Notes: generated from the sequence alone by a model not told the origin. Shown: positions 1-32,276, counted from the first letter of the stretch. The stretch: 64,000 bases of DNA from Candidatus Saccharimonadota bacterium (GCA_026395435.1 JAPLYT010000003.1:4024-68023); one strand, 5' to 3'. Translations and numbers: made by a program.

Positions 1-1388
1 TCCCAGAAAGAGAAAAATACAGGGACGCCGCTATCTCCGGTACCTAAAAATCCGCCAAAATCACCAGTTTGAGGGACTAAGCCTGTCGAATAACTGTTAA
101 AAACCGAAGAATTTGCATCGAGATTACCAATGAATCCTCCAGTATTATCACCGCCAGAAATCAATCCACGACTGTAGTTATTGTTCAAGTAAGCTTCACT
201 GACGTTACCAGAAAAACCACCTATATTATGATCGCCATAGGCATTTCCGGTGGCAAAAGATTCTGTTGTTGAATATCCATTATTCGAATTATTACCAACT
301 ATAGAACCTACTAAGCCACCAACATTACTATCACCATGGACATTTCCGGTGGCTTTTGACTGACGAATACCGCTAATATATGCGACACCTATTAACCCGC
401 CAACATCTTGTACGCCGGTTACTTCTCCTGATGCAGAAACGGTATTAAATTTAGCGCCATTGCCCATGCATCCATCTTGACCCACAAAGCCACCAACCTC
501 ATTTCTACCTGTAACTGTGCCTGTAGCATAAGAATTATTATACTGTGCAACACATGCTGATTGACCCACAAAGCCACCAACTAAATCGATACTGCTGTCG
601 GCTGTAACATTTCCGGTAGCAAAGGAATTTTCAACAGTATTTGTCGAGTCACCAAAATTAGATCCTGCAAATCCACCTATATTCGAATTTAAACACTCGG
701 TAGGTTGTGCAGTAATATTTCCGGTTGATGAAGAATTTAAAATGTTAGAAGTCTGCAGGGCACCAAATGCGCCGCCTATGTTATTGCAACCACCTGCAAC
801 AGCAACGTTTGCTATTACATTTGTAATATCGGTAGTAGACGCAGACCCGATAATTCCACCGACTTGTTGGTAATTTCCATTAACTGAACCGCTGACGGTA
901 ATATTTTGAAGTATTGTATGAGTTCCTCCATTATCGGTACTATATCCTGCCAAACCACCGACTTGACTACCCCCATTAACCGTAATATTTGTGAGGGTGA
1001 GGTCGTGAACATATGCTCCTTCAAGTGCAGTGAATAATCCTGACGCATCGTAACCATTAACGGTTACATCAGAAATTGTGAATCCATTACCGTCAAACTC
1101 ACCGTTAAATTCTTCATCATCCCAACCATTTGGATCCTTACCAATTGGCAGTAAATCACCTCCGCTGGAGCATGAGAAACTGGCAGTAAGCTTGAAATGC
1201 AGATTTTCTTGACCGCCGATGTCGTCCATAGCCCTAAGGTCTGTGCAATTCGAAATTAGGAATGGCGCTCCAGCGGATCCATTGCCAGCAAGCGCGTAAA
1301 CAGTATGTGAGAAAAGTATCGAAAACGTTGGTAGTAGCAACAAAAGCGATGCTAAAGAAACCTTTAATGTTCGCGTGATTGATTTCAA
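1..1388 (-). CDS. GLUG-repeat secreted surface protein, third tandem paralog (3' end runs off the window start)
   Basis: Not in the ORF track (open at window edge, TTG start). My translation of the minus strand from TTG at 1388 (AAGGA 7 nt upstream) gives signal peptide MKSITRTLKVSLASLLLLLPTFSILFSHTVYA. It continues with the cap PFLISNCTDLRAMDD..FNGEFDGNGFTISDVTVNG and repeats ending VGGLAG/VGGIIG/VGGFVG, as in the two upstream genes. The frame stays open to position 1. Confidence 0.75.
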   Translation of the reverse strand, partial: MKSITRTLKVSLASLLLLLPTFSILFSHTVYALAGNGSAGAPFLISNCTDLRAMDDIGGQENLHFKLTASFSCSSGGDLLPIGKDPNGWDDEEFNGEFDGNGFTISDVTVNGYDASGLFTALEGAYVHDLTLTNITVNGGSQVGGLAGYSTDNGGTHTILQNITVSGSVNGNYQQVGGIIGSASTTDITNVIANVAVAGGCNNIGGAFGALQTSNILNSSSTGNITAQPTECLNSNIGGFAGSNFGDSTNTVENSFATGNVTADSSIDLVGGFVGQSACVAQYNNSYATGTVTGRNEVGGFVGQDGCMGNGAKFNTVSASGEVTGVQDVGGLIGVAYISGIRQSKATGNVHGDSNVGGLVGSIVGNNSNNGYSTTESFATGNAYGDHNIGGFSGNVSEAYLNNNYSRGLISGGDNTGGFIGNLDANSSVFNSYSTGLVPQTGDFGGFLGTGDSGVPVFFSFW

Positions 1389-1422
1389 AACATTATCCTT
1401 TTTATAGTTTATTTTCATCATA

Positions 1423-4400
1423 TTATTTTCGATTTCCACCAAATCCGGTGTTTGGCGTGTTCACAACCAACAGAGCTGGGCCAGATGGATCCTTGATCTT
1501 TCCCACTGCAGGGTCTTCATCTAACGGTCCATTATCGACAATTTCGTATGCAAGCTTCACAGCGTTTTGTCCGCCAATAACAACGTTGGTAATTGTTGCA
1601 CCAGGGATAGTGCTATACGCGTTTGTGACAGAATTGTATTTGCGAGCTATGAAATCCTGAGCGGTGTAATTACCGAACCAATATTGCGAAATAGTAAACG
1701 AATGAGGGGCATTGGCTGCAACATCAAGTGGTGCACCACACGGACAACACTGCGCCGAAACCTTTGGACTGCCACCGTTTATAGACTGTGCACCGAGCGA
1801 CAATGCTGCAGTACCCATACAATCACAACAAGGATTGTAGCAGTCTGTACTAAAGCCCATTACACCCGCAGGATACGAATAGCCTGCATCTTTGTGATCG
1901 GTAGATTCTGGGACGACAGAAGTTGTTTTATTCAAAGAACCATTAACACCACCATTACATGTACCGGTATTAATGGCGACGTAGTTTCCGGTGATAGGGT
2001 TCAGGAAGTTTGTTACGCTTGCTTGCTCGGAATCAAGGATTCCATCGTTGTTGGCATCACCTTTGTTTGGGCCGTTGTTTTCTACCGAGTCGAGTACACC
2101 GTCGTTATCATGATCGGAATTTTCAGCTCGGGTAGTTCCTTCTAGAGTTGCAAATTCATCAATGAAGTTGTTATTAACGTGCATCGAGAATTCGTAGCTT
2201 GTGTTTGGATTCAGATTATAGAAAATTGCCTTTCCTTGAGGTCGACTGGCTGAATCTATATTGATCCAATCGGTATCACCGGTTTTTCGGTAGCGAGTAA
2301 CATTCCAGTCAGCTGGAGTTGCTCGACTCGAGTCGCCACCGTGATAGCCAACTTCGCACAATATTCTAGCGGTTGTTGATGTCAGATGCGTTTGTTCGCA
2401 GGTTATAATTGCGGTAGGGTCGAGCTGCCATTTGAATACAGGATAGTCATTGTTTTGCGTTGATGCAAATTCCCAAATTGTGGCAAAATCAAAACCATTA
2501 ATATCCGGGTTTACATTTGGATCTGCTTCGAAAGTTGGCTGATTAACTACTAGTTTCATTTCGTTTGTGTTCTTAGGAGTGGCTCTATTGTCGGTACTAA
2601 GTCCTGATGATTGCTGATCAAAGTACAGTGAATAATAGATAGGGGTGCCTTCTGCAACTCCAGACGCAACATCATTACCAATCATACCCCCTGTGTGTGC
2701 ATGGTCCGTTGCTTCGACGCCGCCGGTCGAGTAGGCATGAGTAAGTTGCCAACTATCAGCAATTTCGCCTATTAAACCGCCAACATTTCCATTGCCGGAC
2801 ACTGCACCACGAGAGTAAACGTCGTTAATACTACTTCCACTTACGAATCCGAACAGACCTCCAGCGCTATCTCCGGTAGCCGAAACATTTCCTTTTGAGT
2901 ATGACTTGTTTATTTTACTTGTTGAGTCACCAGCATTATATGCGCCACCGCTCAAATAACCACCCAATCCACCAACATACTGGTTCCCGGTGACACTTCC
3001 GGAGGCATATGACTTTGTAATAGTTGTTTGAGAACCTGAACCTATAAAGCCACCGACAGAAACATCTCCTTGTACATCACCAGATGCATATACTTTTAGA
3101 TAGGTACCGCCAACTCCTTCACAAGAGTCATCACCAACGAATCCACCGACTTCAGTCGCATGAGGAGCGGTTACATTACCACTGGCATAGGAGTTAGTTA
3201 TTGATGATTTACATCCACCCGATCCCGCAAAGCCACCAACCGAAAAAGCTGGATTGGCTGTTGGTAGATAGTCAACGACAACATTACCGGTGGCGTAAGA
3301 ATCGGATATTTCCACACCTTCGCCGAGTGCGATACCCGCAAACCCGCCAACATTATAGCTATTGGTATTGTTCGGTGAATTTCCATTGACGTTTCCATGC
3401 CCAGTCACCAATCCGGTAGCATGAGAGCCTGAGATTTTTGCTTTAGATGTAGGACTGAAATCTTGCATTTGGCCTACGAAGCCACCGGCATTAATTCCTT
3501 CAGACTCTACGGTAGCGGCAGTACTTGAACTTCGAATGTCGCCTCCCGTCATGTAGCCTACGAAGCCACCTACCTTATCTCCACTTTTTGCAACGCCACC
3601 AACATATACGTTCTCTCTGTAGTCTGCTTGAACAGTAGCATCTGAAGTAACAGTCACAAGGTTTACCATACCACCGCTAAGCTCTCCTATTGCTCCACCG
3701 ATGCTATAGCCACCATCTACATTTGCTGAGGTTGTACTTCCTGATAAAATTCCGCCATTCATAGATCCGATCAACCCGCCAATAATGTTTCCACTGCCAT
3801 GTACAGATCCGCCGAGCACTGAAGACTCGGAGATGATTGAAGTATCTGTATCGCTATCTTTGAACGTGTAGCCAGCAATCCCGCCACCGTTATAAGACAA
3901 GTAGGCTCTGGCCATGCTGTTATTTACAGTCACTCGGGTGATTGAAGTACTGCCTGCAACCCCTACTAAACCACCGGTATATTGTTGGCCGACGATTGAC
4001 GAATTAGTGAGCGTTAGGTCATGAATAGATGCTTTATATGTAAATCCAAAAAGCCCCACAAACGAAGTTTCTTTGCGGAAAATCCATAAGTTACTTATGA
4101 CCTTGCCATTGCCATCGAATGTCCCAGTAAAGTTATCCTGTGGTCCGCCAATTGGGTCAAAACCGCTATAACCGTTATTGACAACTCCTGTGTAGGAATC
4201 GTTTATGAGCGTACCTCCGACGATTCCGTCGACCCATTCTGATTCGTTCGGGTTTTGGGTAGCAGTGCTTGAACAGTCAATATCAGTGTTAAGTTTATAA
4301 CTAGCAGCTAGAGATGCCGTGTTGGCAGAAATTGCGTTGAGGTCTTCGCAAGAATTAATCAAAATTGGATCGGGTGCAAGCGCAGCTGCGATCTGAGGTG

Positions 4401-4476
4401 TAAACATCGTAATCATAGGTACCAGTAGCACGGCTACAGCTAATAATGAACTGGCTCGACGTAAATACTTATACAC
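1423..4476 (-). CDS. giant GLUG-repeat secreted surface protein (1017 aa), putative adhesin
   Basis: GTG start preceded by GAGGAG. Signal peptide MYKYLRRASSLLAVAVLLVPMITMF..AAALA. Cap motif INSCEDL..IDCSS..FTGTFDGNGKVISNL. More than 20 repeats of the type SYA[ST]GxVxGxxxVGG[FL][AIV]G (GLUG motif, PF07581-like). Also an FN3-like segment and acidic DxDxDG (thrombospondin type 3-like) repeats. The C-terminal module ends DPSGPALLVVNTPNTGFGGNRK. Confidence 0.85.
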   Translation of the reverse strand: MYKYLRRASSLLAVAVLLVPMITMFTPQIAAALAPDPILINSCEDLNAISANTASLAASYKLNTDIDCSSTATQNPNESEWVDGIVGGTLINDSYTGVVNNGYSGFDPIGGPQDNFTGTFDGNGKVISNLWIFRKETSFVGLFGFTYKASIHDLTLTNSSIVGQQYTGGLVGVAGSTSITRVTVNNSMARAYLSYNGGGIAGYTFKDSDTDTSIISESSVLGGSVHGSGNIIGGLIGSMNGGILSGSTTSANVDGGYSIGGAIGELSGGMVNLVTVTSDATVQADYRENVYVGGVAKSGDKVGGFVGYMTGGDIRSSSTAATVESEGINAGGFVGQMQDFSPTSKAKISGSHATGLVTGHGNVNGNSPNNTNSYNVGGFAGIALGEGVEISDSYATGNVVVDYLPTANPAFSVGGFAGSGGCKSSITNSYASGNVTAPHATEVGGFVGDDSCEGVGGTYLKVYASGDVQGDVSVGGFIGSGSQTTITKSYASGSVTGNQYVGGLGGYLSGGAYNAGDSTSKINKSYSKGNVSATGDSAGGLFGFVSGSSINDVYSRGAVSGNGNVGGLIGEIADSWQLTHAYSTGGVEATDHAHTGGMIGNDVASGVAEGTPIYYSLYFDQQSSGLSTDNRATPKNTNEMKLVVNQPTFEADPNVNPDINGFDFATIWEFASTQNNDYPVFKWQLDPTAIITCEQTHLTSTTARILCEVGYHGGDSSRATPADWNVTRYRKTGDTDWINIDSASRPQGKAIFYNLNPNTSYEFSMHVNNNFIDEFATLEGTTRAENSDHDNDGVLDSVENNGPNKGDANNDGILDSEQASVTNFLNPITGNYVAINTGTCNGGVNGSLNKTTSVVPESTDHKDAGYSYPAGVMGFSTDCYNPCCDCMGTAALSLGAQSINGGSPKVSAQCCPCGAPLDVAANAPHSFTISQYWFGNYTAQDFIARKYNSVTNAYSTIPGATITNVVIGGQNAVKLAYEIVDNGPLDEDPAVGKIKDPSGPALLVVNTPNTGFGGNRK

Positions 4477-4550
4477 GCTCAGGGACTCCTCAAGTAATTA
4501 CCTTTAGTGTACTTGATAATGGTTGTGCTTACTAGTATTTTTAAGCAAAA

Positions 4551-7500
4551 TTACAGCTTCGAAATACCGGTGTTTGGGACACCCACTCCAGCGAACCTGG
4601 AAGAGATTGGCCTTATAGCTAGAAGTGCGGGGCCAGTTGGGTCGGAAATTCGGCCGTTTACGGTGCCGTCATCATCAAGCGGACCACCGTCGATAACATG
4701 GTAAACCACTTTCATTACCGGCTTTCCGGCGATAACTTCGTTTGTTAGAACAGCATCAGGGATCGTAGTATACACATTGTTTTTCCATTTTCGAATCACT
4801 ATTTTGCTAATATCAAAAGTACCATAATAATATTGAGCGACCGTCACGTCAGACCCGCAGCCAGTAGCCGTGAAGCCGACCAATCCTGCCGGGTAATCAT
4901 ACATCGAGTCTTCGCTACTGCCTCCGGCCTCGCTACCTATCTGGACACCTTGGTTACTAGTGCAGTTAGTTTGTAGCACCGCGTACTTGCCGCTAACTAT
5001 GTCGACGTAACTTGAGACGTTAGATTGATTGCCGTCTGGTGTACCGTCATTATTTGCGTCTCCATAGTTGGGTGCATCGCTCTCTTGGTTGTTTTGTACA
5101 CCATCAGAATCTAAATCAATAGACCACTTGAGTTTGGGTGTCTTACCCTCTTGAATTACCCATATATCAGTAAAGGCCCAAATTGGTGATAAGTTGATTG
5201 TAAAAGGGGTATTGGTTGAATTACCGATAAAGTGGTTACTGTCATTACCGTCTAGGTTAACGAGTATACAAGAGTCATCGTTGTCGGCATTTCCATAACA
5301 ATTCAGGCCAGCTGATTGAGCATCAACATAAACTCGAGAGTCGGTAGTATAGGAACCAGTGTTTAGCCCAACAACGGACCCAACTGCAGATGGACCATTT
5401 TCACCTACTGAGACAAAAGAGTTCGTAATCGTTGCTTCACCATTTTGATACCCAATTATGCCACCAGCATGACCATTCTGAGCACTTACCCTATCGGTTT
5501 CAGCACTAGTGACGTAACTTTTATCAATTGTTACTATACCGATTTCACTTGCAATAAAGCCCCCCGCATTGTAAGCGCCAGCTGTTACTGAACCTTCAAA
5601 ATAACTATCTGAGATATGCGTAATCTGACCATCTTCACCAATCAAACCACCAGCATTATCATGACCGTTTACCAAAATCACCGCCTTTACAAAACTTTGG
5701 CTAATAGCGAGAGTAGGGTCATAATCTTCGTTAAAAGATTTCCCAATGAGGCCACCTACATTTGCGCCATTAGCAGAAAGTGAAGGACTGACGGCGCTAA
5801 CGTAATTCGTACGACTTAATATTGTATCTAACCCATTTGCATCTATATAGCCAATTAAGCCACCGACAGAATTTCCACTTGCCAGTATCGTTGATGTCGC
5901 TTTGCTCGTTGTGATATTTAATATCGGTCGGTCACCACTATCCTCAAAATAACTATAGGCGGTGCCGATAAGACCGCCACATTGGTTTGCGCATGAAATC
6001 GAACCAGTTGATTGACTATCACTTATTGTCAATGTGCTGGAATTCTCGACGTCACCATAGCCAATCAATCCACCAACAGAATTAGCGCTTGAACTATTGA
6101 TGGCAACGTCTGCCCGGCTATTTCGTATCTGGAGTGAACCAGGATTTAGCTCCGCGTATCCGACAACTCCTCCCCAGTAGCCATAATTGCCACTATTAGA
6201 GCTTGAGCCTATCGATACGTCCGATGTAGAGTTTGAAATTATAGTTGAAGAGCCATCATCGGTATAAACATATCCAACTATCCCACCGGGAAGGTAATCA
6301 GCGTGAATATTTCCTTTTACATGGACGGCATCAATCATTGCGCCCCCGTTGATTCGACCAACCAAACCACCCACCTCACAGCTTCCGGTGACATTAACTT
6401 CGTCAAGCGTAATGTCATGAACACTACTGTCGTTGTTCAAGCTAGCAAACAATCCGACATCGCAATCATTAGGCCTATTAATATACAGGCCAGAGATAGT
6501 GTGGCCTTGGCCATTGAGCGTGCCAGTAAAATCTTGGATCGGCATAAAGCCAAAGTAACCGCCGCTACCGTTGTCGTTCAAGGTTGCCGTACCGGAGCAA
6601 TCAATGTTTTGGGTAAGTAAATAGTCACCCGTAGGATCATTGACCATGTTTTGTATATCCGAGCAGTTTGAAATTGCATAGTTAATCACACCTAAGTATT
6701 TGTTGTATACGTAGTTCCACTCGCCATTCCCAACAATGTTTTTAGCTCGGGCTCGTATATCATAACGACCTACGGCCAAACCATTTATGCCAACGGCTGG
6801 GCTCGTTACCGGATACTCGCCCCAAGTATTCTGACCGGCCAAAGAATAGGCAAAATCGTAACCAGTAATTGCCGATGTCCCTGTATTGCTTGGTGCTACC
6901 CAGGTAGCACCAAGGCTAGTGACGTTATTTAAAAATTGGAGATTCGAGACTTGATCTGGTACCGTGCCGACCATGACATCGTCTACTTCAGTATATGCTC
7001 CAACCCCTACCTCATTGGCAGCCGCCACACGTAAGTCATATCGGACATTATTCGTCAGTCCATCAACGATTATATTGGTTATGCTTGAATTTGGATCGTG
7101 CCCAAATGTTGTCCATGCCGAGTCAGTAGATAATCGATATTGGATACTATAGTCTTCGATAGTACCATTCCCTACATTAAGCAAAGGCGCCCAAGTAAGA
7201 CTAACTTGAGCACTCGATCCTTCTGACTGAACGTTGGCGGGAGCACCAGGAAATGTCTTTAGTAAGGTTGGATGCCAAGAAAATTTTGGTAGATTTCCGG
7301 GATCCGCTACGAGATATGAAGATGCTGATGGACTGGAAAAGCTGACAAATGGTTCATTACTAAGTGACCTGAAGTAAGCACTGTCTGAAGTACGATTGGT
7401 ACAGCTTGTATTATTTGGTGTGGTCGTGTCTATTATCGCCCAACAATCAGATTTTACCGACAAAGCTGAGTCCCAGTTTAGATTTGCAAAATTTCCTGAA

Positions 7501-8312
7501 TTTACTCCACCGATAAGCCCTCCCACGCCTGGTGAGCTAACCGATCCAGTCGCAAAAATTTGGGTAACGGTGCCAGCCTGTTGTTTACCTATAAATCCAC
7601 CGGTATTAGTCCCGTTACCGGACACGTTTCCGCTGGCGAACGACGATGTAATATTATTATTGTTATATCCTGCGAATCCGCCGATACCATCACTGCCATT
7701 AATAACATTACCCTTGGCATAAGAGTTATTTATTGTGCCGGCATAGTTAGACCCAACAAAGTTACCCGTAAAACTTCCGCCATTCGTATTAATATTTGTA
7801 TCGGTGAAGGCAAATTCGATATGTCCTTTATTGAGGCCTGCAAGCACACCACTTCGTTCGCCAACGTTAAGATATCCACCCTGAATCCCAACATGGCCGA
7901 CATAGCCCTCGGCTCCAATGGTGCCAAACAAGCCAGTACCGTCTGTTCCACGACTTAGATTATTAATGTAAAGATTCTTAATGACGTGATCATTGCCGTT
8001 AAAGTTTCCTTTGAAATGTCCGGTTGTGTTGTTGCAGCATCCGTTGCTACCAATAGGTATGAAACCTTGACCACTGTTCCAGTTCAGGGTGTCGGAACAA
8101 TCAATATCGTTTGCAAGGCTGTAGTATTTGGTTAATTCTTGCTGGACCTCTTGTAGCTGGGTACACGTAGTAATTATGAATGGTGTCGCCTGGCTTCCAT
8201 CTCCAGCCCCCGAAAATGCATGTACTTGCCTGTTTTGGCCGAACATACTAAATGCTACTGATGCGATGAGCAATCCTGTAAACGTAATCGTAACTATGTT
8301 GATTTTTCTCAC
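4551..8312 (-). CDS. giant GLUG-repeat secreted surface protein (1253 aa), putative adhesin
   Basis: ATG start and signal peptide MRKINIVTITFTGLLIASVAFSMF. Two cap-plus-GLUG-repeat modules (caps FIITTCTQLQEV..IDCSD.. and YAISNCSDIQNM..IDCSG..). They are separated by two FN3 domains at roughly 6690-7250 (PGAPANVQSEGSSAQVSLTWAP.., VPDQVSNLQFLNNVTSLGATWVAP..). TSP3-like DSDGVQNNQESDAPNYGDANNDGTPD. Same C-terminal module as 1423..4476, ending DPTGPALLAIRPISSRFAGVGVPNTGISKL. Confidence 0.85.
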   Translation of the reverse strand: MRKINIVTITFTGLLIASVAFSMFGQNRQVHAFSGAGDGSQATPFIITTCTQLQEVQQELTKYYSLANDIDCSDTLNWNSGQGFIPIGSNGCCNNTTGHFKGNFNGNDHVIKNLYINNLSRGTDGTGLFGTIGAEGYVGHVGIQGGYLNVGERSGVLAGLNKGHIEFAFTDTNINTNGGSFTGNFVGSNYAGTINNSYAKGNVINGSDGIGGFAGYNNNNITSSFASGNVSGNGTNTGGFIGKQQAGTVTQIFATGSVSSPGVGGLIGGVNSGNFANLNWDSALSVKSDCWAIIDTTTPNNTSCTNRTSDSAYFRSLSNEPFVSFSSPSASSYLVADPGNLPKFSWHPTLLKTFPGAPANVQSEGSSAQVSLTWAPLLNVGNGTIEDYSIQYRLSTDSAWTTFGHDPNSSITNIIVDGLTNNVRYDLRVAAANEVGVGAYTEVDDVMVGTVPDQVSNLQFLNNVTSLGATWVAPSNTGTSAITGYDFAYSLAGQNTWGEYPVTSPAVGINGLAVGRYDIRARAKNIVGNGEWNYVYNKYLGVINYAISNCSDIQNMVNDPTGDYLLTQNIDCSGTATLNDNGSGGYFGFMPIQDFTGTLNGQGHTISGLYINRPNDCDVGLFASLNNDSSVHDITLDEVNVTGSCEVGGLVGRINGGAMIDAVHVKGNIHADYLPGGIVGYVYTDDGSSTIISNSTSDVSIGSSSNSGNYGYWGGVVGYAELNPGSLQIRNSRADVAINSSSANSVGGLIGYGDVENSSTLTISDSQSTGSISCANQCGGLIGTAYSYFEDSGDRPILNITTSKATSTILASGNSVGGLIGYIDANGLDTILSRTNYVSAVSPSLSANGANVGGLIGKSFNEDYDPTLAISQSFVKAVILVNGHDNAGGLIGEDGQITHISDSYFEGSVTAGAYNAGGFIASEIGIVTIDKSYVTSAETDRVSAQNGHAGGIIGYQNGEATITNSFVSVGENGPSAVGSVVGLNTGSYTTDSRVYVDAQSAGLNCYGNADNDDSCILVNLDGNDSNHFIGNSTNTPFTINLSPIWAFTDIWVIQEGKTPKLKWSIDLDSDGVQNNQESDAPNYGDANNDGTPDGNQSNVSSYVDIVSGKYAVLQTNCTSNQGVQIGSEAGGSSEDSMYDYPAGLVGFTATGCGSDVTVAQYYYGTFDISKIVIRKWKNNVYTTIPDAVLTNEVIAGKPVMKVVYHVIDGGPLDDDGTVNGRISDPTGPALLAIRPISSRFAGVGVPNTGISKL

Positions 8313-10318: not shown

Positions 10319-11185
10319 ATGAAGTTCACTATCCAAGAGTTTAATCAAAAGTTTCCTACTAGTGACTCCTGCTTGGATTACCTCTGGAAAATGCACTTCG
10401 CAGATAAGCCCTGTATTACCTGTGGGATGTATGACGGCTTTCATAAACTTCCACACCGCCCTGCCTACCAATGCCAATGCGGTAGTCAGCTTTACCCGTT
10501 AGCTGGCACACCATTCCACAAGTCCACGACCGATCTACGTACGTGGTTTCTTGCTATCTTCTTTATGACCAACACTCGCTCAGGTATGTCAGCCCTCCAG
10601 TTCCAGCGCATTAGTGGCGTAACCTACAAAACTGCTTGGCGTATTTTCAAGCAAGTCCGTCTGATGATGGCTGACGACAATAGCCAGCTCAATACTCATG
10701 TTGAAGTAGACGAAGCCTACATGCACCCCAATCCTCAAAAGCGTAGTACCGCTAAGCCACATAACAGCCAAGTTTTATTTGGCATGGTGGAACGAGGTGG
10801 CCGAGCTAGGATTAAGCACGTCAAAAGCTCAGGTACTCGTGTATTAGTTCCTGAAATCCAAAAGAATATTGAGCAGACTGCCACGATCTATAGCGATGAA
10901 CATGGCTCATATCGTTTGCTTAAGAAACGTGGTTATCTGCATCAAACCGTTAACCACGGCAAGCAACAATATGTTATTGGCTGGGTACACACCCAAAACG
11001 TTGAAAACTTCTGGAGCCAATTTAAGCGTGGTATCTATGGCGTTTACCGCCACTGTGATCCAAACTACTTACAGCACTATGCCAACGAGTATGCTTTCCG
11101 ATATTCCAACCGCAAAAACGATACGCCTATGTTTGAGCTAATATTAGGCAAACTCCTTAGCTCACCAACCCCTCTAAACAAGTAG
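10319..11185 (+). CDS. IS1595-family transposase (N-terminal zinc ribbon plus DDE domain)
   Basis: N-terminal Cys pairs (CITCG..CQCG). DDE_Tnp_IS1595-like blocks VEVDEAYM, IYSDEHGSY, NVENFWSQFKRGIYGVYRH, YANEYAFRYSNRKN. I could not define terminal inverted repeats. Confidence 0.85.
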   Translation: MKFTIQEFNQKFPTSDSCLDYLWKMHFADKPCITCGMYDGFHKLPHRPAYQCQCGSQLYPLAGTPFHKSTTDLRTWFLAIFFMTNTRSGMSALQFQRISGVTYKTAWRIFKQVRLMMADDNSQLNTHVEVDEAYMHPNPQKRSTAKPHNSQVLFGMVERGGRARIKHVKSSGTRVLVPEIQKNIEQTATIYSDEHGSYRLLKKRGYLHQTVNHGKQQYVIGWVHTQNVENFWSQFKRGIYGVYRHCDPNYLQHYANEYAFRYSNRKNDTPMFELILGKLLSSPTPLNK

Positions 11186-28700: not shown

Positions 28701-30005
28701 TCAAACACGAGCAAGCTTCTTGGGTGTTTCTTTTTTCAACTTTTTTACATACGTAGGTTTCGCAATCCCTAAAATTATACAAATCCAGAGGATTACTTCC
28801 ATCTGAATATTGATGTTGTTTACAGCCAAGAATAATATCATAAACCACAAAACAGATCGGATCACCGTATTCGCTGAGCTGTTATTGCGTAACCCTCGTA
28901 ATGCAGAGTAGAGGAGATATATAAATAATCCCGTAATGATCACTCCTCTCTCGACAACAAGATCGACAAAATAATTATGGCTGCTTTCAAACCTGATGCC
29001 GTCTTCTACATCCACCCCAATTCGAGGATATTTTTTGCCATTGTCATGAATATTTCGATCAATTGAACCTATGCCTTCGCCGAGGATGAAGCCTTTTGGC
29101 TTTGGCATGCTCGCTTGTACCAAATTCAAGCGGTATAGAACACTTTCGACAAAATAGGGGGTATTGGCAAGTCGGGAAAAGTAGTTAAAACGAACGAACA
29201 GAAGTGTAAGCGCGACTAATGAGGACAGGATAAGGATTTTAAGATAGCGTTTAAATGAATATCTGTAATCATAAATGATTAAACCCGCAAGGATTATCAG
29301 GGCACTCCGCGTTTGGCTTAGTAGTAGACACAAACATAAGAAAATAATGCTCGGTACTAAATACTTTGGGTTTACTTTCTTATGTCTATACAGCCAAAGC
29401 CCCAGCAAAATACCGATTGCAAATAAACAGGCTGCATAGATAACTTGGGAATCGATAAAACCTAACCTTGTGTTTGAGTGTCCTTGTAGCCAAAAAACAA
29501 AATTCACAACTGCCCAACCGCATATACTTAGGTATGCACCAATCAACATTTTCGTCCGCTCAATTGTCGCAATCATTGTGCCGACTGCGATACTTGCATA
29601 TAAAGAAACCAGACTTGGATGGACCAATGGTGTACCTATAAGCGCGTTCATTGTAATAGAGTTGAGCAACAAGACAACGGTAGACAGAAAGACAAACAAT
29701 GGAATTTTCCTATCCTTCCAAATATTTTTTAGTATTTCCCGGCGGTAAAGTACAAGATATAAAAATGCGATGACTCCTGCGGCTCCAATAAAGAACCGAC
29801 GCAACCAAAATGCCTTGTATAAATCTTGTGACCAATAATACATACCTCCGAGTAATGAGGTAGTCGCCAAAATACTTAGAATAGAAGCGCCAAACGGCAC
29901 CACCGTTTGTTCGATTTTTTGTTGTTTGGGCATTACAGGTATAGTTATACCATGAGGCTCCGCCATACTGTGACTAATTTTTATAATGCTTTGAACGGGT
30001 ACCAA
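28701..30005 (-). CDS. O-antigen ligase/polymerase-like (Wzy_C-type) polytopic membrane protein
   Basis: About 10 TM helices. Signature ILGEGIGSI .. SSHNYFVDLVVERGVIITGLFIYLL. Start uncertain (alternatives at 29966 and 29933), because the longest ORF overlaps the divergent neighbour. Confidence 0.6.
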   Translation of the reverse strand: MVPVQSIIKISHSMAEPHGITIPVMPKQQKIEQTVVPFGASILSILATTSLLGGMYYWSQDLYKAFWLRRFFIGAAGVIAFLYLVLYRREILKNIWKDRKIPLFVFLSTVVLLLNSITMNALIGTPLVHPSLVSLYASIAVGTMIATIERTKMLIGAYLSICGWAVVNFVFWLQGHSNTRLGFIDSQVIYAACLFAIGILLGLWLYRHKKVNPKYLVPSIIFLCLCLLLSQTRSALIILAGLIIYDYRYSFKRYLKILILSSLVALTLLFVRFNYFSRLANTPYFVESVLYRLNLVQASMPKPKGFILGEGIGSIDRNIHDNGKKYPRIGVDVEDGIRFESSHNYFVDLVVERGVIITGLFIYLLYSALRGLRNNSSANTVIRSVLWFMILFLAVNNINIQMEVILWICIILGIAKPTYVKKLKKETPKKLARV

Positions 30006-32276
30006 TCTATTTTTTATTATCTATTTTTGAGCTCGCCTCTAGTATTTATTCAAGATCGTCAAAGTAACTCACGTTACGTACAACTCTGGTTTATTGGTAT
30101 TTCACTCGTCATTGGGGTTATCTTGCAGCGAAAATCGATAAGTCGGTATGTTTCAAGTATCCCTAAAAATGTCATGATTGCAGGGATAATACTTATCGCA
30201 TCAATACTCATTAGTCTCGCTCGCAACTTTGGAGCAAGAGGCCTCATAACTTTTGGTGGGTATGCGCCAGAATACATTGGGTATAGTGCCTGGTTCATTT
30301 TCGTAGCGGGGGCACTGCTTTTCGCAAAAGACATTCGAACGTATATATTTTCATCTGCCCACCTCATACTTTCTGGGCTTGTATTGTTGGTCTCTGTCTT
30401 GACGAGTTATAACGAACTAACCAGAGGAGTACCGCTGAGAGGGCTCCTGTATTCCCCTTTGGCAATGGCCACTTTTGCAAATATTACCCTCGTATTATGT
30501 ATTCTGCGATACAAAGAATCGTCACGTTTTCGTCTGTTATTTGGGCTTTCGATTATTCTGCTTTGTGGCGTAATCCTGGCAACCCAAACAATAGTTGGCA
30601 TAGCCGTTATGGTACTAGTCTTGGTGGTATCCACATTTATATGGCTACAAAAATTTAGTCAAAGAGTCTTCGTCTTGATATTCGTTGGCAGTGTTATGTT
30701 AATCCCAAGCGTTTTCCCCGGATATTTCTGGCATCTCAGGAATCAAGAAATCTCAGGGGGTGTTCGTTACCAAACTACCCTCATAACTGAAGCGGTATCG
30801 AATGCTTCAATCACTCAAATTCTTTTTGGAAGGGGTGCAAAATCCTTACCCAAAGCTGTAGATAATCATAATTTTGCCGAAGCTGAGATTGTAAAGAGCC
30901 TAGATGTTCATACAAGATTCATCGACAATCATTCCCTGTTTTTTGATATTTTTTATTATTTTGGAACGTTGGGTTTTGTGTCATTTCTATTTCTCAATAT
31001 CATTGCACTAAATAAGCTTTTGTATTTACGAAAAAAAGATAACTATGCAACCGGATTTGGGGTCATATATCTCATATTACTTACGTATACAATGGTAGCC
31101 ATGCCTTCGCTATATCTTTCTTTGCTCTATCTCATAGTTTTATTAGCAATGACTACTACTAAACTGGAAGAGGTTAAAAGGCATAAAAAATTCCATGTCC
31201 TTATGCTTGCTGCTCCTTTGGTGTTGGCAGTAGGAATTCTTTTCGTTTCTAGCCAGCCTAAAGCAGAAACGAAGCCAATTAAAACCTCCGTCCGATATAG
31301 TACGAATCAACCGTTTACATCAGAGGCGGAGCGCGTATTGCAGAAAGAGATCCAGAAGTCTTTCGCCGTTCGAGGTTGTGCAATCTTGATGGATGCACAC
31401 AACGGAGAAGTAGTAAGTATGGTTGATGCCGCCACAAACCAATCAGAACAGGTATGTGTATCAGCCTGGGAGCCAGGTTCTGTTATTAAGCCGCTACTAG
31501 TTGCAACTGCCATCGAAAAAGGAACCACCACACCAAATACTACCTTTTATGACCCAGGTTATGTGTATGCCGGAGAAAGAATCTTTCTTAACGCAGAATC
31601 ATATGATCCAGGCCCTGTCAGCACCCAGGCTATTCTTGATCAATCACGAAATACGGGCGCTATCCATATATTCAACGGGCTTGGTAAGACACCTACTCAA
31701 GCAAGAGACACGTGGCACAATAGCCTTACAGGATCATTTAAGTTTGGCAAGAAGACGGGTTTTGATATTCACGAAGCTTCAGGGTATATCCGTAATCCAA
31801 AAGGCGGCAATTATATAGAAGAACAATTTGCCGCTAGTTCATTTGGCGTCGGAATGACAATTACGCCGCTGCAATTAGCTGCAGCGTATGCTCCGCTCGC
31901 CAATGGAGGTATGTATGTAACACCTCACAAAAATGGTACAAATGTAAAAGATGCAACGCGGGTACTATCTTCGAAAACCAGCAACACAATGCAAAATGTA
32001 CTTAAAGAAGCACTCACATTTAATAATAAAAAGGCAGCGCAGAAAGGATTTGCGCTTGGGGGCAAAACAGGAACTGCCCCTATCGTCGATAATGACGGAG
32101 CATACAAAATTTCGGTAGACGACGGTGTATATGTAGGCTTCGTCGGTAAAGATACGCCAAAGTACATTATGGTCGTCCGAGTAGATGAACCAATGAACTA
32201 CAAGTTTGCCAGTTATTCCGCCCGCGACACGTGGGCCAAATTATCTGATTACTTACTTTCGAACGATTTGAACTAG
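29907..32276 (+). CDS. fusion protein: Wzy_C/O-antigen-ligase-like polytopic domain plus class-B penicillin-binding-protein transpeptidase domain
   Basis: N-terminal approx 430 aa are polytopic, with ILFGRGAKSL .. DNHSLFFDIFYYFGTLGFVSFLFL. The C-terminal domain has the SxxK (EPGSVIKPLL), SxN (DQSRNTG) and KTG (GGKTGTA) boxes. Start uncertain (29907 or MRLRH at 29952). Confidence 0.75.
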   Translation: MFDFLLFGHYRYSYTMRLRHTVTNFYNALNGYQSIFYYLFLSSPLVFIQDRQSNSRYVQLWFIGISLVIGVILQRKSISRYVSSIPKNVMIAGIILIASILISLARNFGARGLITFGGYAPEYIGYSAWFIFVAGALLFAKDIRTYIFSSAHLILSGLVLLVSVLTSYNELTRGVPLRGLLYSPLAMATFANITLVLCILRYKESSRFRLLFGLSIILLCGVILATQTIVGIAVMVLVLVVSTFIWLQKFSQRVFVLIFVGSVMLIPSVFPGYFWHLRNQEISGGVRYQTTLITEAVSNASITQILFGRGAKSLPKAVDNHNFAEAEIVKSLDVHTRFIDNHSLFFDIFYYFGTLGFVSFLFLNIIALNKLLYLRKKDNYATGFGVIYLILLTYTMVAMPSLYLSLLYLIVLLAMTTTKLEEVKRHKKFHVLMLAAPLVLAVGILFVSSQPKAETKPIKTSVRYSTNQPFTSEAERVLQKEIQKSFAVRGCAILMDAHNGEVVSMVDAATNQSEQVCVSAWEPGSVIKPLLVATAIEKGTTTPNTTFYDPGYVYAGERIFLNAESYDPGPVSTQAILDQSRNTGAIHIFNGLGKTPTQARDTWHNSLTGSFKFGKKTGFDIHEASGYIRNPKGGNYIEEQFAASSFGVGMTITPLQLAAAYAPLANGGMYVTPHKNGTNVKDATRVLSSKTSNTMQNVLKEALTFNNKKAAQKGFALGGKTGTAPIVDNDGAYKISVDDGVYVGFVGKDTPKYIMVVRVDEPMNYKFASYSARDTWAKLSDYLLSNDLN

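Follow-up and report, generated by a model that had tools for sequence, protein, structure and literature searches.

The textbook cell-wall sorting signal is tripartite and comprises a recognition motif, a membrane helix and a basic tail. Schneewind et al. (1992-93) reportedly found that protein A deprived of either its hydrophobic or its charged tail is secreted and not anchored, which implies that a substrate lacking the anchor needs another way to meet its sortase. Sortases are grouped into classes; those of class C join proteins to lysines, and the class F model NF033748 represents the housekeeping sortase of P. acnes. As of 2026, the physiological roles of class F sortases were described as not yet known (PMC13251363). 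Synthetic peptides without a membrane anchor are substrates of sortase both in vitro and on live cells, and with Staphylococcus aureus SrtA in situ an LPETG peptide bearing a cationic cluster and no hydrophobic domain enters the wall about 20-fold better than LPETG-amide (PMC4723074). In the open-access literature on Saccharibacteria or Patescibacteria that deals with sortase, LPXTG or choice-of-anchor, we found no description of anchor-less substrates.

In this work we analysed a 64-kb stretch of DNA, referred to here as the window, from a Saccharibacterium (Patescibacteria/CPR), a tiny epibiotic bacterium. Two large genes of this window encode proteins that end in PNTG and a few further residues. 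With a probability of about 0.7, we read this ending as a working sortase recognition signal from which the hydrophobic helix of the tripartite signal has been lost. Such an anchor-less signal, found again in hundreds of relatives and encoded beside a sortase clade of its own, looks like an undescribed variant of Gram-positive cell-wall sorting.

Two large surface proteins and their C-termini

Both genes lie on the minus strand. Protein 1 (1423-4476, 1017 aa) consists of a predicted signal peptide, GLUG-type repeats (Pfam Glug), acidic repeats and a choice-of-anchor-U-like module with a Cys-rich insertion, and terminates as TPNTG-FGGNRK-stop (C-terminus ...DPSGPALLVVNTPNTGFGGNRK). Its Logan gene call begins at Met21, and the resulting 997-aa product is identical on 4 Logan contigs. 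Protein 2 (4551-8312, 1253 aa), in which Pfam recognizes Glug, fn3 and Peptidase_M26_N, is built from a predicted N-terminal signal peptide, GLUG repeats, two fn3 domains, an M26_N-like region, acidic DxDxDG repeats and a choice-of-anchor U module, and terminates as VPNTG-ISKL-stop (C-terminus ...DPTGPALLAIRPISSRFAGVGVPNTGISKL); an identical 1253-aa gene was called on Logan contigs. Read by eye, the N-termini of both proteins show a basic stretch, a hydrophobic stretch and small residues (..QVHA/FS and ..IAAALA), as expected of cleavable signal peptides.

The PNTG codons, located by translation and motif scan, occupy positions 1444-1455 in protein 1 and 4566-4577 in protein 2, and account for two of the three PNTG occurrences in the six reading frames of the window. 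The two sites have the 11-mer CCAAACACCGG in common, because the same amino acids are written with the same preferred codons. In protein 1 the motif is followed by the six residues FGGNRK, which fit the class consensus [LIF]-G-G-x-x-[RK] described below, and a TAA stop (1423-1443); in protein 2 the four residues ISKL and a TAA stop follow (4551-4565), with no hydrophobic helix after them. The original prediction had reported these two endings, the positions of the PNTG codons and the near identity of their DNA, all of which agree with the translated ORFs and the common 11-mer. It had also claimed that no anchor helix had been overlooked. This holds for both genes, as the ATG of the next gene (1421-1419) lies 2 nt past the protein 1 stop, and the 74-nt spacer behind the protein 2 stop contains no in-frame hydrophobic segment. 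That next gene is a third tandem paralog of the same family (703 aa), of which the window holds the 5' part (1-1421, minus strand) before its edge cuts the gene; it is complete on Logan contig L071/L002, where it ends in VPNTG-IERLQ-stop. Classical LPXTG signals with a helix were not found within the 64-kb window.

It is hardly credible that an assembly or frameshift error, or an alternative genetic code, conceals a normal anchor. UGA is recoded in some Patescibacteria (Gracilibacteria, Absconditabacteria), which lends this explanation some plausibility, but both stops in the window are TAA, the next gene begins within a few nucleotides of the stop in other loci as well, the gene products are identical on four independent Logan assemblies, and short tails occur in dozens of independent metagenome-assembled genomes (MAGs).

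Two specific candidates were tried and rejected. For an alternative code, the stops of short-tail ORFs were TAA in 15 cases, TAG in 14 and TGA in 3, with no in-frame helix downstream. For readthrough or frameshifting into the next gene, the N-terminal helix of a downstream sortase was in frame in a few loci, a share close to the one in three that chance predicts, and the wrong topology would result.

The original prediction was right about both the acidic DxDxDG repeats and the beta-rich domain. The NCBIfam model choice_anch_U (NF041766) matches residues 1137-1230 of protein 2 with 50.5 bits, above the curated cutoff of 32, and an AlphaFold2 model of the last 190 aa (4554-5123; calcium-type acidic repeats, beta-sandwich and flexible tail) predicts an all-beta sandwich with a pLDDT of 93.3 and strands up to residue 168. 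In the same model residues 171-190, PNTG included, have a pLDDT of about 65 and no secondary structure. A fold search of the PDB with this model returned nothing at E<=0.001 and generic Ig-like matches only. The whole of protein 1 gave no choice_anch_U match at E<=0.01 and its C-terminal 45 aa alone reached 20.2 bits, the protein falling under the cutoff because of its 45-aa Cys-rich insertion; its module (last 235 aa, 1426-2130) is clearly homologous according to alignment A1 and our own profile, which it matches at positions 8-213. In protein 1 the spacing DPSG-PALLVVNT-PNTG amounts to 12 residues, as is standard for the short-tail class, and protein 2 has 10 residues more than this between the DPxG glycine and the motif glycine.

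Tail classes among homologs

A profile search with the module against 1.84 billion representatives yielded 4637 proteins at E<=1e-3. The best 150 of these 4637 were combined with sequences from genome loci into a set of 206 distinct sequences, in which the tail was measured after the motif pattern [AVTSI]P[ND]TG. Tail length was bimodal, with 125 short, 76 classical and 5 intermediate tails, a short to classical ratio of about 60:40 that may be biased because the 150 representatives are the top-scoring slice obtained with a profile to which short-tail sequences contributed most. Classical tails comprise 26-40 aa with a hydrophobic helix and a basic end, and short tails 1-19 aa (median 5) with the consensus L-G-G-x-x-R/K. 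A hydrophobic segment after the motif is thus absent from 125/206 homologs, as it is from proteins 1 and 2. When the isolated tails were scanned with NCBIfam, no sorting-signal model matched either type, so that all of these proteins would escape the LPXTG predictors and curated models now in use.

Within the short class, composed only of sequences already matching the search pattern, the motif residues are P in 124/125, T in 124/125 and G in 125/125, and among pattern-matched sequences these three residues are near-invariant across 201 homologs and across sequences below 50% identity. Independently of this tally, a PxTG/AxTG-type motif is present in all but one of 152 listed proteins. The tail varies more, with L, I or F at +1 in 106/125, G at +2 in 72/125 and G at +3 in 54/125. 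Lysine or arginine occurs in 96/125 short tails, as it does in FGGNRK and ISKL, and is the last residue in 55/125; at their short length the tails are not a cytoplasmic stop-transfer element.

The distance to the preceding domain is rigid in the short class (G at -12 in 123/125), and the linkers of the classical class are variable. This fixed distance would suit a PNTG that belongs to the choice-of-anchor U fold and has no sorting role, the alternative that the original prediction had set beside its main reading. We consider it very improbable. The segment after the last strand is modelled with low confidence and without secondary structure, the 10-aa insertion before the motif is tolerated in protein 2, and the same ending is found in beta-propeller proteins of an unrelated family, which do not contain the module. 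In addition, classical-tail homologs encoded beside a sortase gene carry this motif ahead of a helix and a basic tail, and in the short class it tracks a dedicated sortase clade.

Another explanation is that the short forms are truncated classical substrates that are now plainly secreted, with PNTG as a relic. Truncation is an easy mutation, classical-tail homologs are found in the same lineages, and tail type changes about 35 times on a tree of the 206 sequences. A relic would however be expected to drift, and the near-invariance of P, T and G in the pattern-matched sequences does not show this. Truncations cluster 1-13 aa past the G and never before it, and the short class has conserved residues of its own at +1 to +3 as well as its rigid spacing. 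The genomic context, described below, argues in the same direction, since a single cluster retains a tandem series of four to six short-tail genes and a sortase gene from clades of its own is kept directly downstream in 17 loci. We therefore regard decay of the signal as quite improbable.

Linked sortases and the gene cluster

In 17 loci from different Saccharibacteria MAGs, a sortase gene was found directly downstream of a short-tail gene, on the same strand and at a distance of -72 to +98 nt. The linked sortases pass the Pfam Sortase model PF04203, and class F is by far their best NCBIfam class. Five linked enzymes, including the sortase P0166, score 100-119 bits with NF033748, which does not reach its curated cutoff of 166; NCBI naming makes P0166 a 'class F sortase'. 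In a sortase tree the 17 enzymes encoded beside short-tail genes and 9 encoded beside classical-tail genes fall into separate clades, and an FSQxP motif ahead of the catalytic Cys is present in 15/17 of the short type and 0/9 of the long type. An alignment of all 26 shows conserved DGH and L[IV]TC[GS]G motifs and hydrophobic N-termini, and the R of a ..DR.IV.. stretch near the C-terminus was assigned as the sortase Arg by its position in the alignment. By this alignment the enzymes have the catalytic His and Cys (and, by position, Arg) of the sortase fold and an N-terminal membrane anchor. A peptide such as VVGAPNTGLGGRQK is a candidate substrate of a short-type sortase.

Within the 64-kb window no sortase was detected, either by a TLxTC motif scan or by tblastn with a Saccharibacteria sortase. 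For the strain of the window, the linkage is deduced from contigs of the same samples and from synteny in a relative, and not from a single continuous sequence. Identical copies of P0166 are present on Logan contigs of runs carrying the window's cluster (SRR25046534, SRR20698644 and SRR20698643), and on every one of those contigs its gene lies 4 nt after a gene ending in VPNTGFGAKI-stop. Contig L071 is identical to the window's cluster and extends beyond the third paralog to a YncE-like protein ending in IPNTGFARK-stop, and then to a small protein (198 aa) bearing a classical LADTG and helix signal. In the relative (L074/L075, about 92% DNA identity to L071), six short-tail genes, one LADTG gene and a sortase gene, whose product is identical to P0166, form one co-directional cluster, with the sortase at its 3' end.

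The YncE-like beta-propeller family is unrelated to the module. Both the member in this cluster and its homologs end in [IV]PNTG plus 3-5 aa, and the family shows the same split into short and long tails. Its short signal surfaced only on extending the window's own cluster. Apart from these, 7 of the 1932 stop-to-stop ORFs in 67 genome loci ended in PxTG; these appeared chance-like and none was convincing. The original prediction, which had proposed the PNTG ending as a possible minimal LPXTG-like sorting signal without an anchor, is thus supported by the constancy of the motif among homologs with varying tails, by its recurrence on other exported proteins and by its co-occurrence with a sortase, cleavage being predicted.

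The same signal and sortase might also serve to ligate the short-tail proteins to a different protein or a foreign wall, and not to the bacterium's own peptidoglycan. In that case the absence of the anchor would be by design, since a substrate must be free in order to be joined in trans, and candidate acceptors would be a lysine or the N-terminus of the small LADTG protein, a further member of a covalently linked surface assembly, or the host bacterium's wall. The position of the 198-aa LADTG protein in the middle of the cluster, the occurrence of both class-F-like and TLYTC sortases in these loci and the precedent of the class C sortases are in keeping with such an acceptor, as is the obligately epibiotic life of Saccharibacteria on Actinobacteria (PMC11623550). 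However, neither a pilin-type motif nor a conserved acceptor lysine was found, and a small LAxTG protein is absent within 10 kb in most loci with short tails and a sortase, which makes a different acceptor unlikely. Somewhat less likely still is its most specific form, in which free sortase-tagged adhesins, exported by the epibiont, would be joined covalently by its FSQxP-type sortase, or even by one that the actinobacterial host supplies, to something else than its own nascent wall, such as the host wall or a covalent scaffold of several surface proteins built on the small LADTG protein.

Proposed mechanism and comparison with known systems

In the preferred reading, that of a working signal without its helix, the large adhesin-like surface proteins would leave the cell through Sec. 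Their last folded unit is the choice-of-anchor U beta-sandwich, with [A/V/T/S/I]-P-N-T-G exposed just past the final strand, where it would be accessible to a dedicated, membrane-anchored, class-F-like sortase (DGH, LITCGG and the clade-specific FSQxP). This enzyme is predicted to cut between T and G, which would free a peptide of 2-9 residues (here G-FGGNRK and G-ISKL), and to pass the protein to an amine acceptor, most likely a peptidoglycan precursor, resulting in covalent attachment to the wall. Membrane retention would not be needed, possibly reflecting slow escape of proteins of 700-1250 aa from the wall zone; docking via the adjacent module and/or the basic tail may be an alternative or additional reason.

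If this is true, a large and conserved natural class of helix-less substrates with its own sortase clade would show, against the textbook rule, that membrane retention is not universally required, and natural substrates could be assigned to class-F-like sortases. The ending would also mark the surface proteins of these obligate epibionts, the Saccharibacteria, about whose host-contact molecules little is known, and attachment in trans, should it take place, would give CPR bacteria a covalent means of attaching to their hosts. Protein ligation could moreover profit from a sortase that has evolved for soluble substrates.

The classical signal of S. aureus protein A, recognized by SrtA, shares with the signal described here the Sec signal, the P-x-T-G at the very end of large surface proteins, a neighbouring sortase gene, classical-tail members in the same family and tails that are often basic. 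The short signal differs in having no hydrophobic membrane-spanning segment, with 4-6 residues after the G in the window and 1-19 in the class, in having A, V, T, S or I and not L at motif position 1, in its own tail consensus and, in the class as a whole, in its fixed distance to the preceding domain. Like class F sortases (NF033748), which they match best, the linked enzymes have an N-terminal membrane anchor, a conserved His and Cys and a PxTG-type motif, but they stay below the 166-bit cutoff and form Saccharibacteria-specific clades, of which the FSQxP one is tied to anchor-less substrates. The choice-of-anchor U domain, for which protein 2 lies above the cutoff, directly precedes the sorting signal, as its name implies, but the model NF041766 ends at DPxG and does not cover the short signal. 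Closest in format are the synthetic ligation substrates (LPETG-G, or LPETG with a cationic tail), which likewise consist of the motif and a few residues, often Gly or basic. Those substrates are artificial and need high concentrations, whereas in Saccharibacteria the format occurs naturally, is conserved and has an enzyme of its own as genetic partner.

C-termini of two large secreted proteins and their gene cluster

Two very large secreted proteins are encoded co-directionally on the minus strand at the left end of the window, protein 1 by ORF 1423-4476 (1017 aa) and protein 2 by ORF 4551-8312 (1253 aa). Their translations end in DNGPLDEDPAVGKIKDPSGPALLVVNTPNTGFGGNRK and GGPLDDDGTVNGRISDPTGPALLAIRPISSRFAGVGVPNTGISKL, respectively, with the PNTG codons at positions 1444-1455 in protein 1 and 4566-4577 in protein 2 (minus strand), and with TAA as the stop codon in both. 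The placement of PNTG just before the stop, as described in the original prediction, was thus borne out, and these two C-termini account for two of the three occurrences of PNTG in the six frames of the window. The further claim that no anchor helix had been missed also held: the next gene starts (ATG 1421-1419) 2 nt past the stop of protein 1, and no helix is encoded in the 74-nt spacer 3' of the protein 2 stop.

Pfam searches identified GLUG repeats, fibronectin type III domains and an M26-N-like region in the surface proteins, and the C-terminal end of protein 2 belongs to the choice-of-anchor U domain family of NCBIfam (50.5 bits for a cutoff of 32). The last 190 residues, modelled with AlphaFold2 using an 80-sequence alignment, form a beta-sandwich (pLDDT 93), the final strand of which stops approximately 20 residues ahead of the stop; PNTG and the rest of these final residues have no secondary structure (pLDDT ~65). 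A fold search gave no significant match of the modelled module to a solved structure. Within its module protein 1 carries a Cys-rich insertion of about 45 aa with 8 Cys (CYNPCCDCMG...QCCPCG; window 1750-1900, residues ~860-905), which is missing from protein 2 and most homologs, a similar one being found in the homolog P0058, and which probably explains why protein 1 falls under the NCBIfam cutoff.

Elsewhere the window contains genes for a Mur ligase, a PBP transpeptidase, Dus, an MFS transporter and similar products, and the close homologs of the surface proteins all come from Candidatus Saccharibacteria/Saccharimonadia MAGs. The source organism is accordingly assigned to the Patescibacteria, as a member that bears a wall. 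At a distance of 2 kb from the surface-protein cluster there is a transposase gene of the IS1595 family (ISXO2-like; 10319-11185, plus strand). A divergent gene pair (28701-30005, minus strand, and 29907-32276, plus strand) encodes Wzy_C (O-antigen-ligase-like) domains; the 789-aa product of the second gene is a fusion of the Wzy_C membrane domain with the transpeptidase domain of a penicillin-binding protein, a domain combination that is unusual among cell-wall synthases.

An exact-product look-up located the window's genes on Logan assemblies from four sequencing runs, and the longest matching contig, L071 (12,975 nt), runs past the left edge of the window as far as the fifth gene of the cluster. 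On this contig the third gene, which is cut by the window edge, ends in VPNTGIERLQ. The fourth (L071 10860-12428) encodes a 522-aa YncE-like beta-propeller/Ig (Big_7) protein without the choice-of-anchor U module, ending in AAATIPNTGFARK (IPNTGFARK). The fifth (L071 12425-12973; 11566-12162 on the related contig L074) encodes a small secreted protein of 198 aa with a classical signal, composed of LADTG, a hydrophobic helix and RQYR. The organism's cluster therefore comprises four tandem short-tail genes, one of them on an unrelated scaffold, and an adjoining classical sortase substrate. This LADTG protein, placed in the middle of the short-tail genes, could be processed by another sortase, or could serve the short-tail proteins as a base anchored in the wall.

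Conservation of the motif and classes of tails

A search of 1.84 billion representative proteins with a profile of the module resulted in 4637 matches at E<=1e-3, of which 911 reached E<=1e-30. Tails were classified in 206 distinct sequences, taken from the best 150 matches and from genome loci, and their length past the motif was bimodal. Short tails were found in 125 sequences (1-19 aa, median 5) and classical tails, with a hydrophobic 15-mer and K/R, in 76 (26-40 aa, median 34), leaving 5 odd cases. As anticipated for a genuine signal, PNTG is kept in the short class while the tail varies: P and T are each present in 124 and G in all 125 sequences, tallies which, like those that follow for this class, partly restate the selection, since only sequences fitting the motif search pattern were counted. 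Independently of this pattern, a PxTG/AxTG-type motif is present in all but one of the 152 listed proteins. At the variable position, 106 of the 125 short-class motifs have N and 9 have D. The residue following the motif is L, I or F in 106, G is found at +2 in 72 and at +3 in 54, and 96 short tails contain K or R. Exactly 12 residues separate the glycine of DPxG in the module from the motif glycine in 123 of the 125 sequences; linkers in the classical class are variable.

A neighbour-joining tree built on the domain, tails excluded, required approximately 35 changes of tail type, versus approximately 66 with shuffled labels; tail type is therefore heritable, yet has been switched repeatedly. 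The same ending also occurs on other exported proteins, as had been proposed, namely those of the unrelated YncE-like family, whose homologs likewise split into short and classical forms (e.g. VPNTGFSKR versus VPNTGLQPAEHMYLTEALIVMMLGLLAMLFATYRRM). More distant homologs of the module carry LA[DEN]TG and a helix, a motif type typical of class E sortases.

Could the short tails be artefacts? UGA recoding might hide an anchor, but the short-tail ORFs end in TAA (15), TAG (14) or TGA (3), and this reading was rejected. No in-frame hydrophobic segment was found 3' of the short-tail stops, except at places where the signal or anchor belonging to the following gene is in frame by chance, and gene products are identical across independent assemblies. 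At some junctions (L034, L035 and L027) a sortase ORF lies in frame, 0-1 codon past the stop of the short-tail gene. Readthrough there would join PNTG and tail to the membrane helix of the sortase; this arrangement, which concerns about one third of the junctions and would give the wrong topology, was judged coincidental. The feature itself is real and well above chance.

Sortases linked to the short-tail genes

The first classical-tail homolog, P0001, has a sortase gene 3 nt downstream. This sortase, followed by profiles from its matches, was used to search 67 genome loci, and 30 sortase genes were found in 28 of them. Co-occurrence with a sortase was thus seen in these loci: in 17 of them a short-tail gene lies directly upstream of the sortase gene on the same strand (stop-to-stop ORF distance -72 to +98 nt). 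A classical-tail gene is directly upstream in 7 loci, and adjacent on the opposite strand in 2 more. The linked sortases pass Pfam PF04203; class F is their best model at 100-119 bits, under its cutoff of 166, and one of them carries the NCBI name class F sortase. On the sortase tree the neighbours of classical-tail genes form two clades of their own, and all 17 short-tail neighbours fall outside both. FSQxP immediately precedes the catalytic LITCGG in 15 of 17 short-type versus none of 9 long-type sortases.

Some Saccharibacteria loci encode a second sortase type, with a TLYTC motif and closest to classes C/D/E (L009 7281-7880; L030 19222-19833; L046 13654-14292; L051 7654-8280), which may serve LAxTG substrates. 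A type-1 rhodopsin gene (PF01036) is located approximately 8 kb from the sortase operon of a related Saccharibacteria contig (L001 9769-10503).

Searches for a TLxTC motif and by tblastn found no sortase gene in the 64-kb window. An ENA contig (L074/L075), 92% identical in DNA to L071 across genes 4-5, bears a cluster of co-directional genes: three of the GLUG/choice-of-anchor U type (with the C-termini VPNTGLGKL, VPNTGFSR and VPNTGIERLQ), the YncE-like gene (IPNTGFARK), the 198-aa LADTG protein with its full anchor, two further large genes (VPNTGIQRTN and VPNTGFGAKI) and, 4 nt past the last of these, an FSQxP-type sortase of 223 aa. An identical sortase protein, P0166, is encoded on Logan contigs of runs SRR25046534, SRR20698644 and SRR20698643, which also contain the window's exact cluster, and in every case its gene is 3' of the one ending in VPNTGFGAKI. 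Contig L078 bears genes 6 and 7 of the cluster, with the sortase gene after them. As read from these separate contigs of the same runs and from synteny in the relative, the sortase gene most likely sits approximately 7 kb past the left edge of the window.

Proposed processing and relation to known sorting systems

We consider that PNTG with its short tail is a sortase signal, with a probability of about 0.7. From the observed sequence, conservation, linkage and co-variation we infer the following steps. The surface proteins would be exported by Sec and their signal peptide removed, after which a membrane-anchored class-F-like sortase would bind the exposed PNTG and cut the T-G bond, releasing G and 1-13 residues; an amine, most likely that of a peptidoglycan precursor, would then resolve the acyl-enzyme. 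The very large size of the proteins may slow their escape from the wall zone, making a helix dispensable, and the fixed spacing to the motif points to docking of the adjacent module on the sortase.

In S. aureus, SrtA incorporated LPETG with a cationic cluster and no hydrophobic segment approximately 20-fold above the bare motif (PMC4723074), which parallels the basic short tails described here. A sortase family is encoded in more than half of CPR genomes (PMC6744442), and what class F sortases do in the cell is still described as unknown (PMC13251363). The NCBIfam sorting-signal models did not match the tails. In the open-access literature we found no description of natural anchor-less sortase substrates, and an earlier account may exist outside that scope. 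The data are best explained by a tail-less sortase signal served by a dedicated clade of Saccharibacteria sortases. Such a system would work like the classical sorting signal but without its defining hydrophobic segment, and for this reason we class it as a variant, rather than a member, of known sortase sorting.
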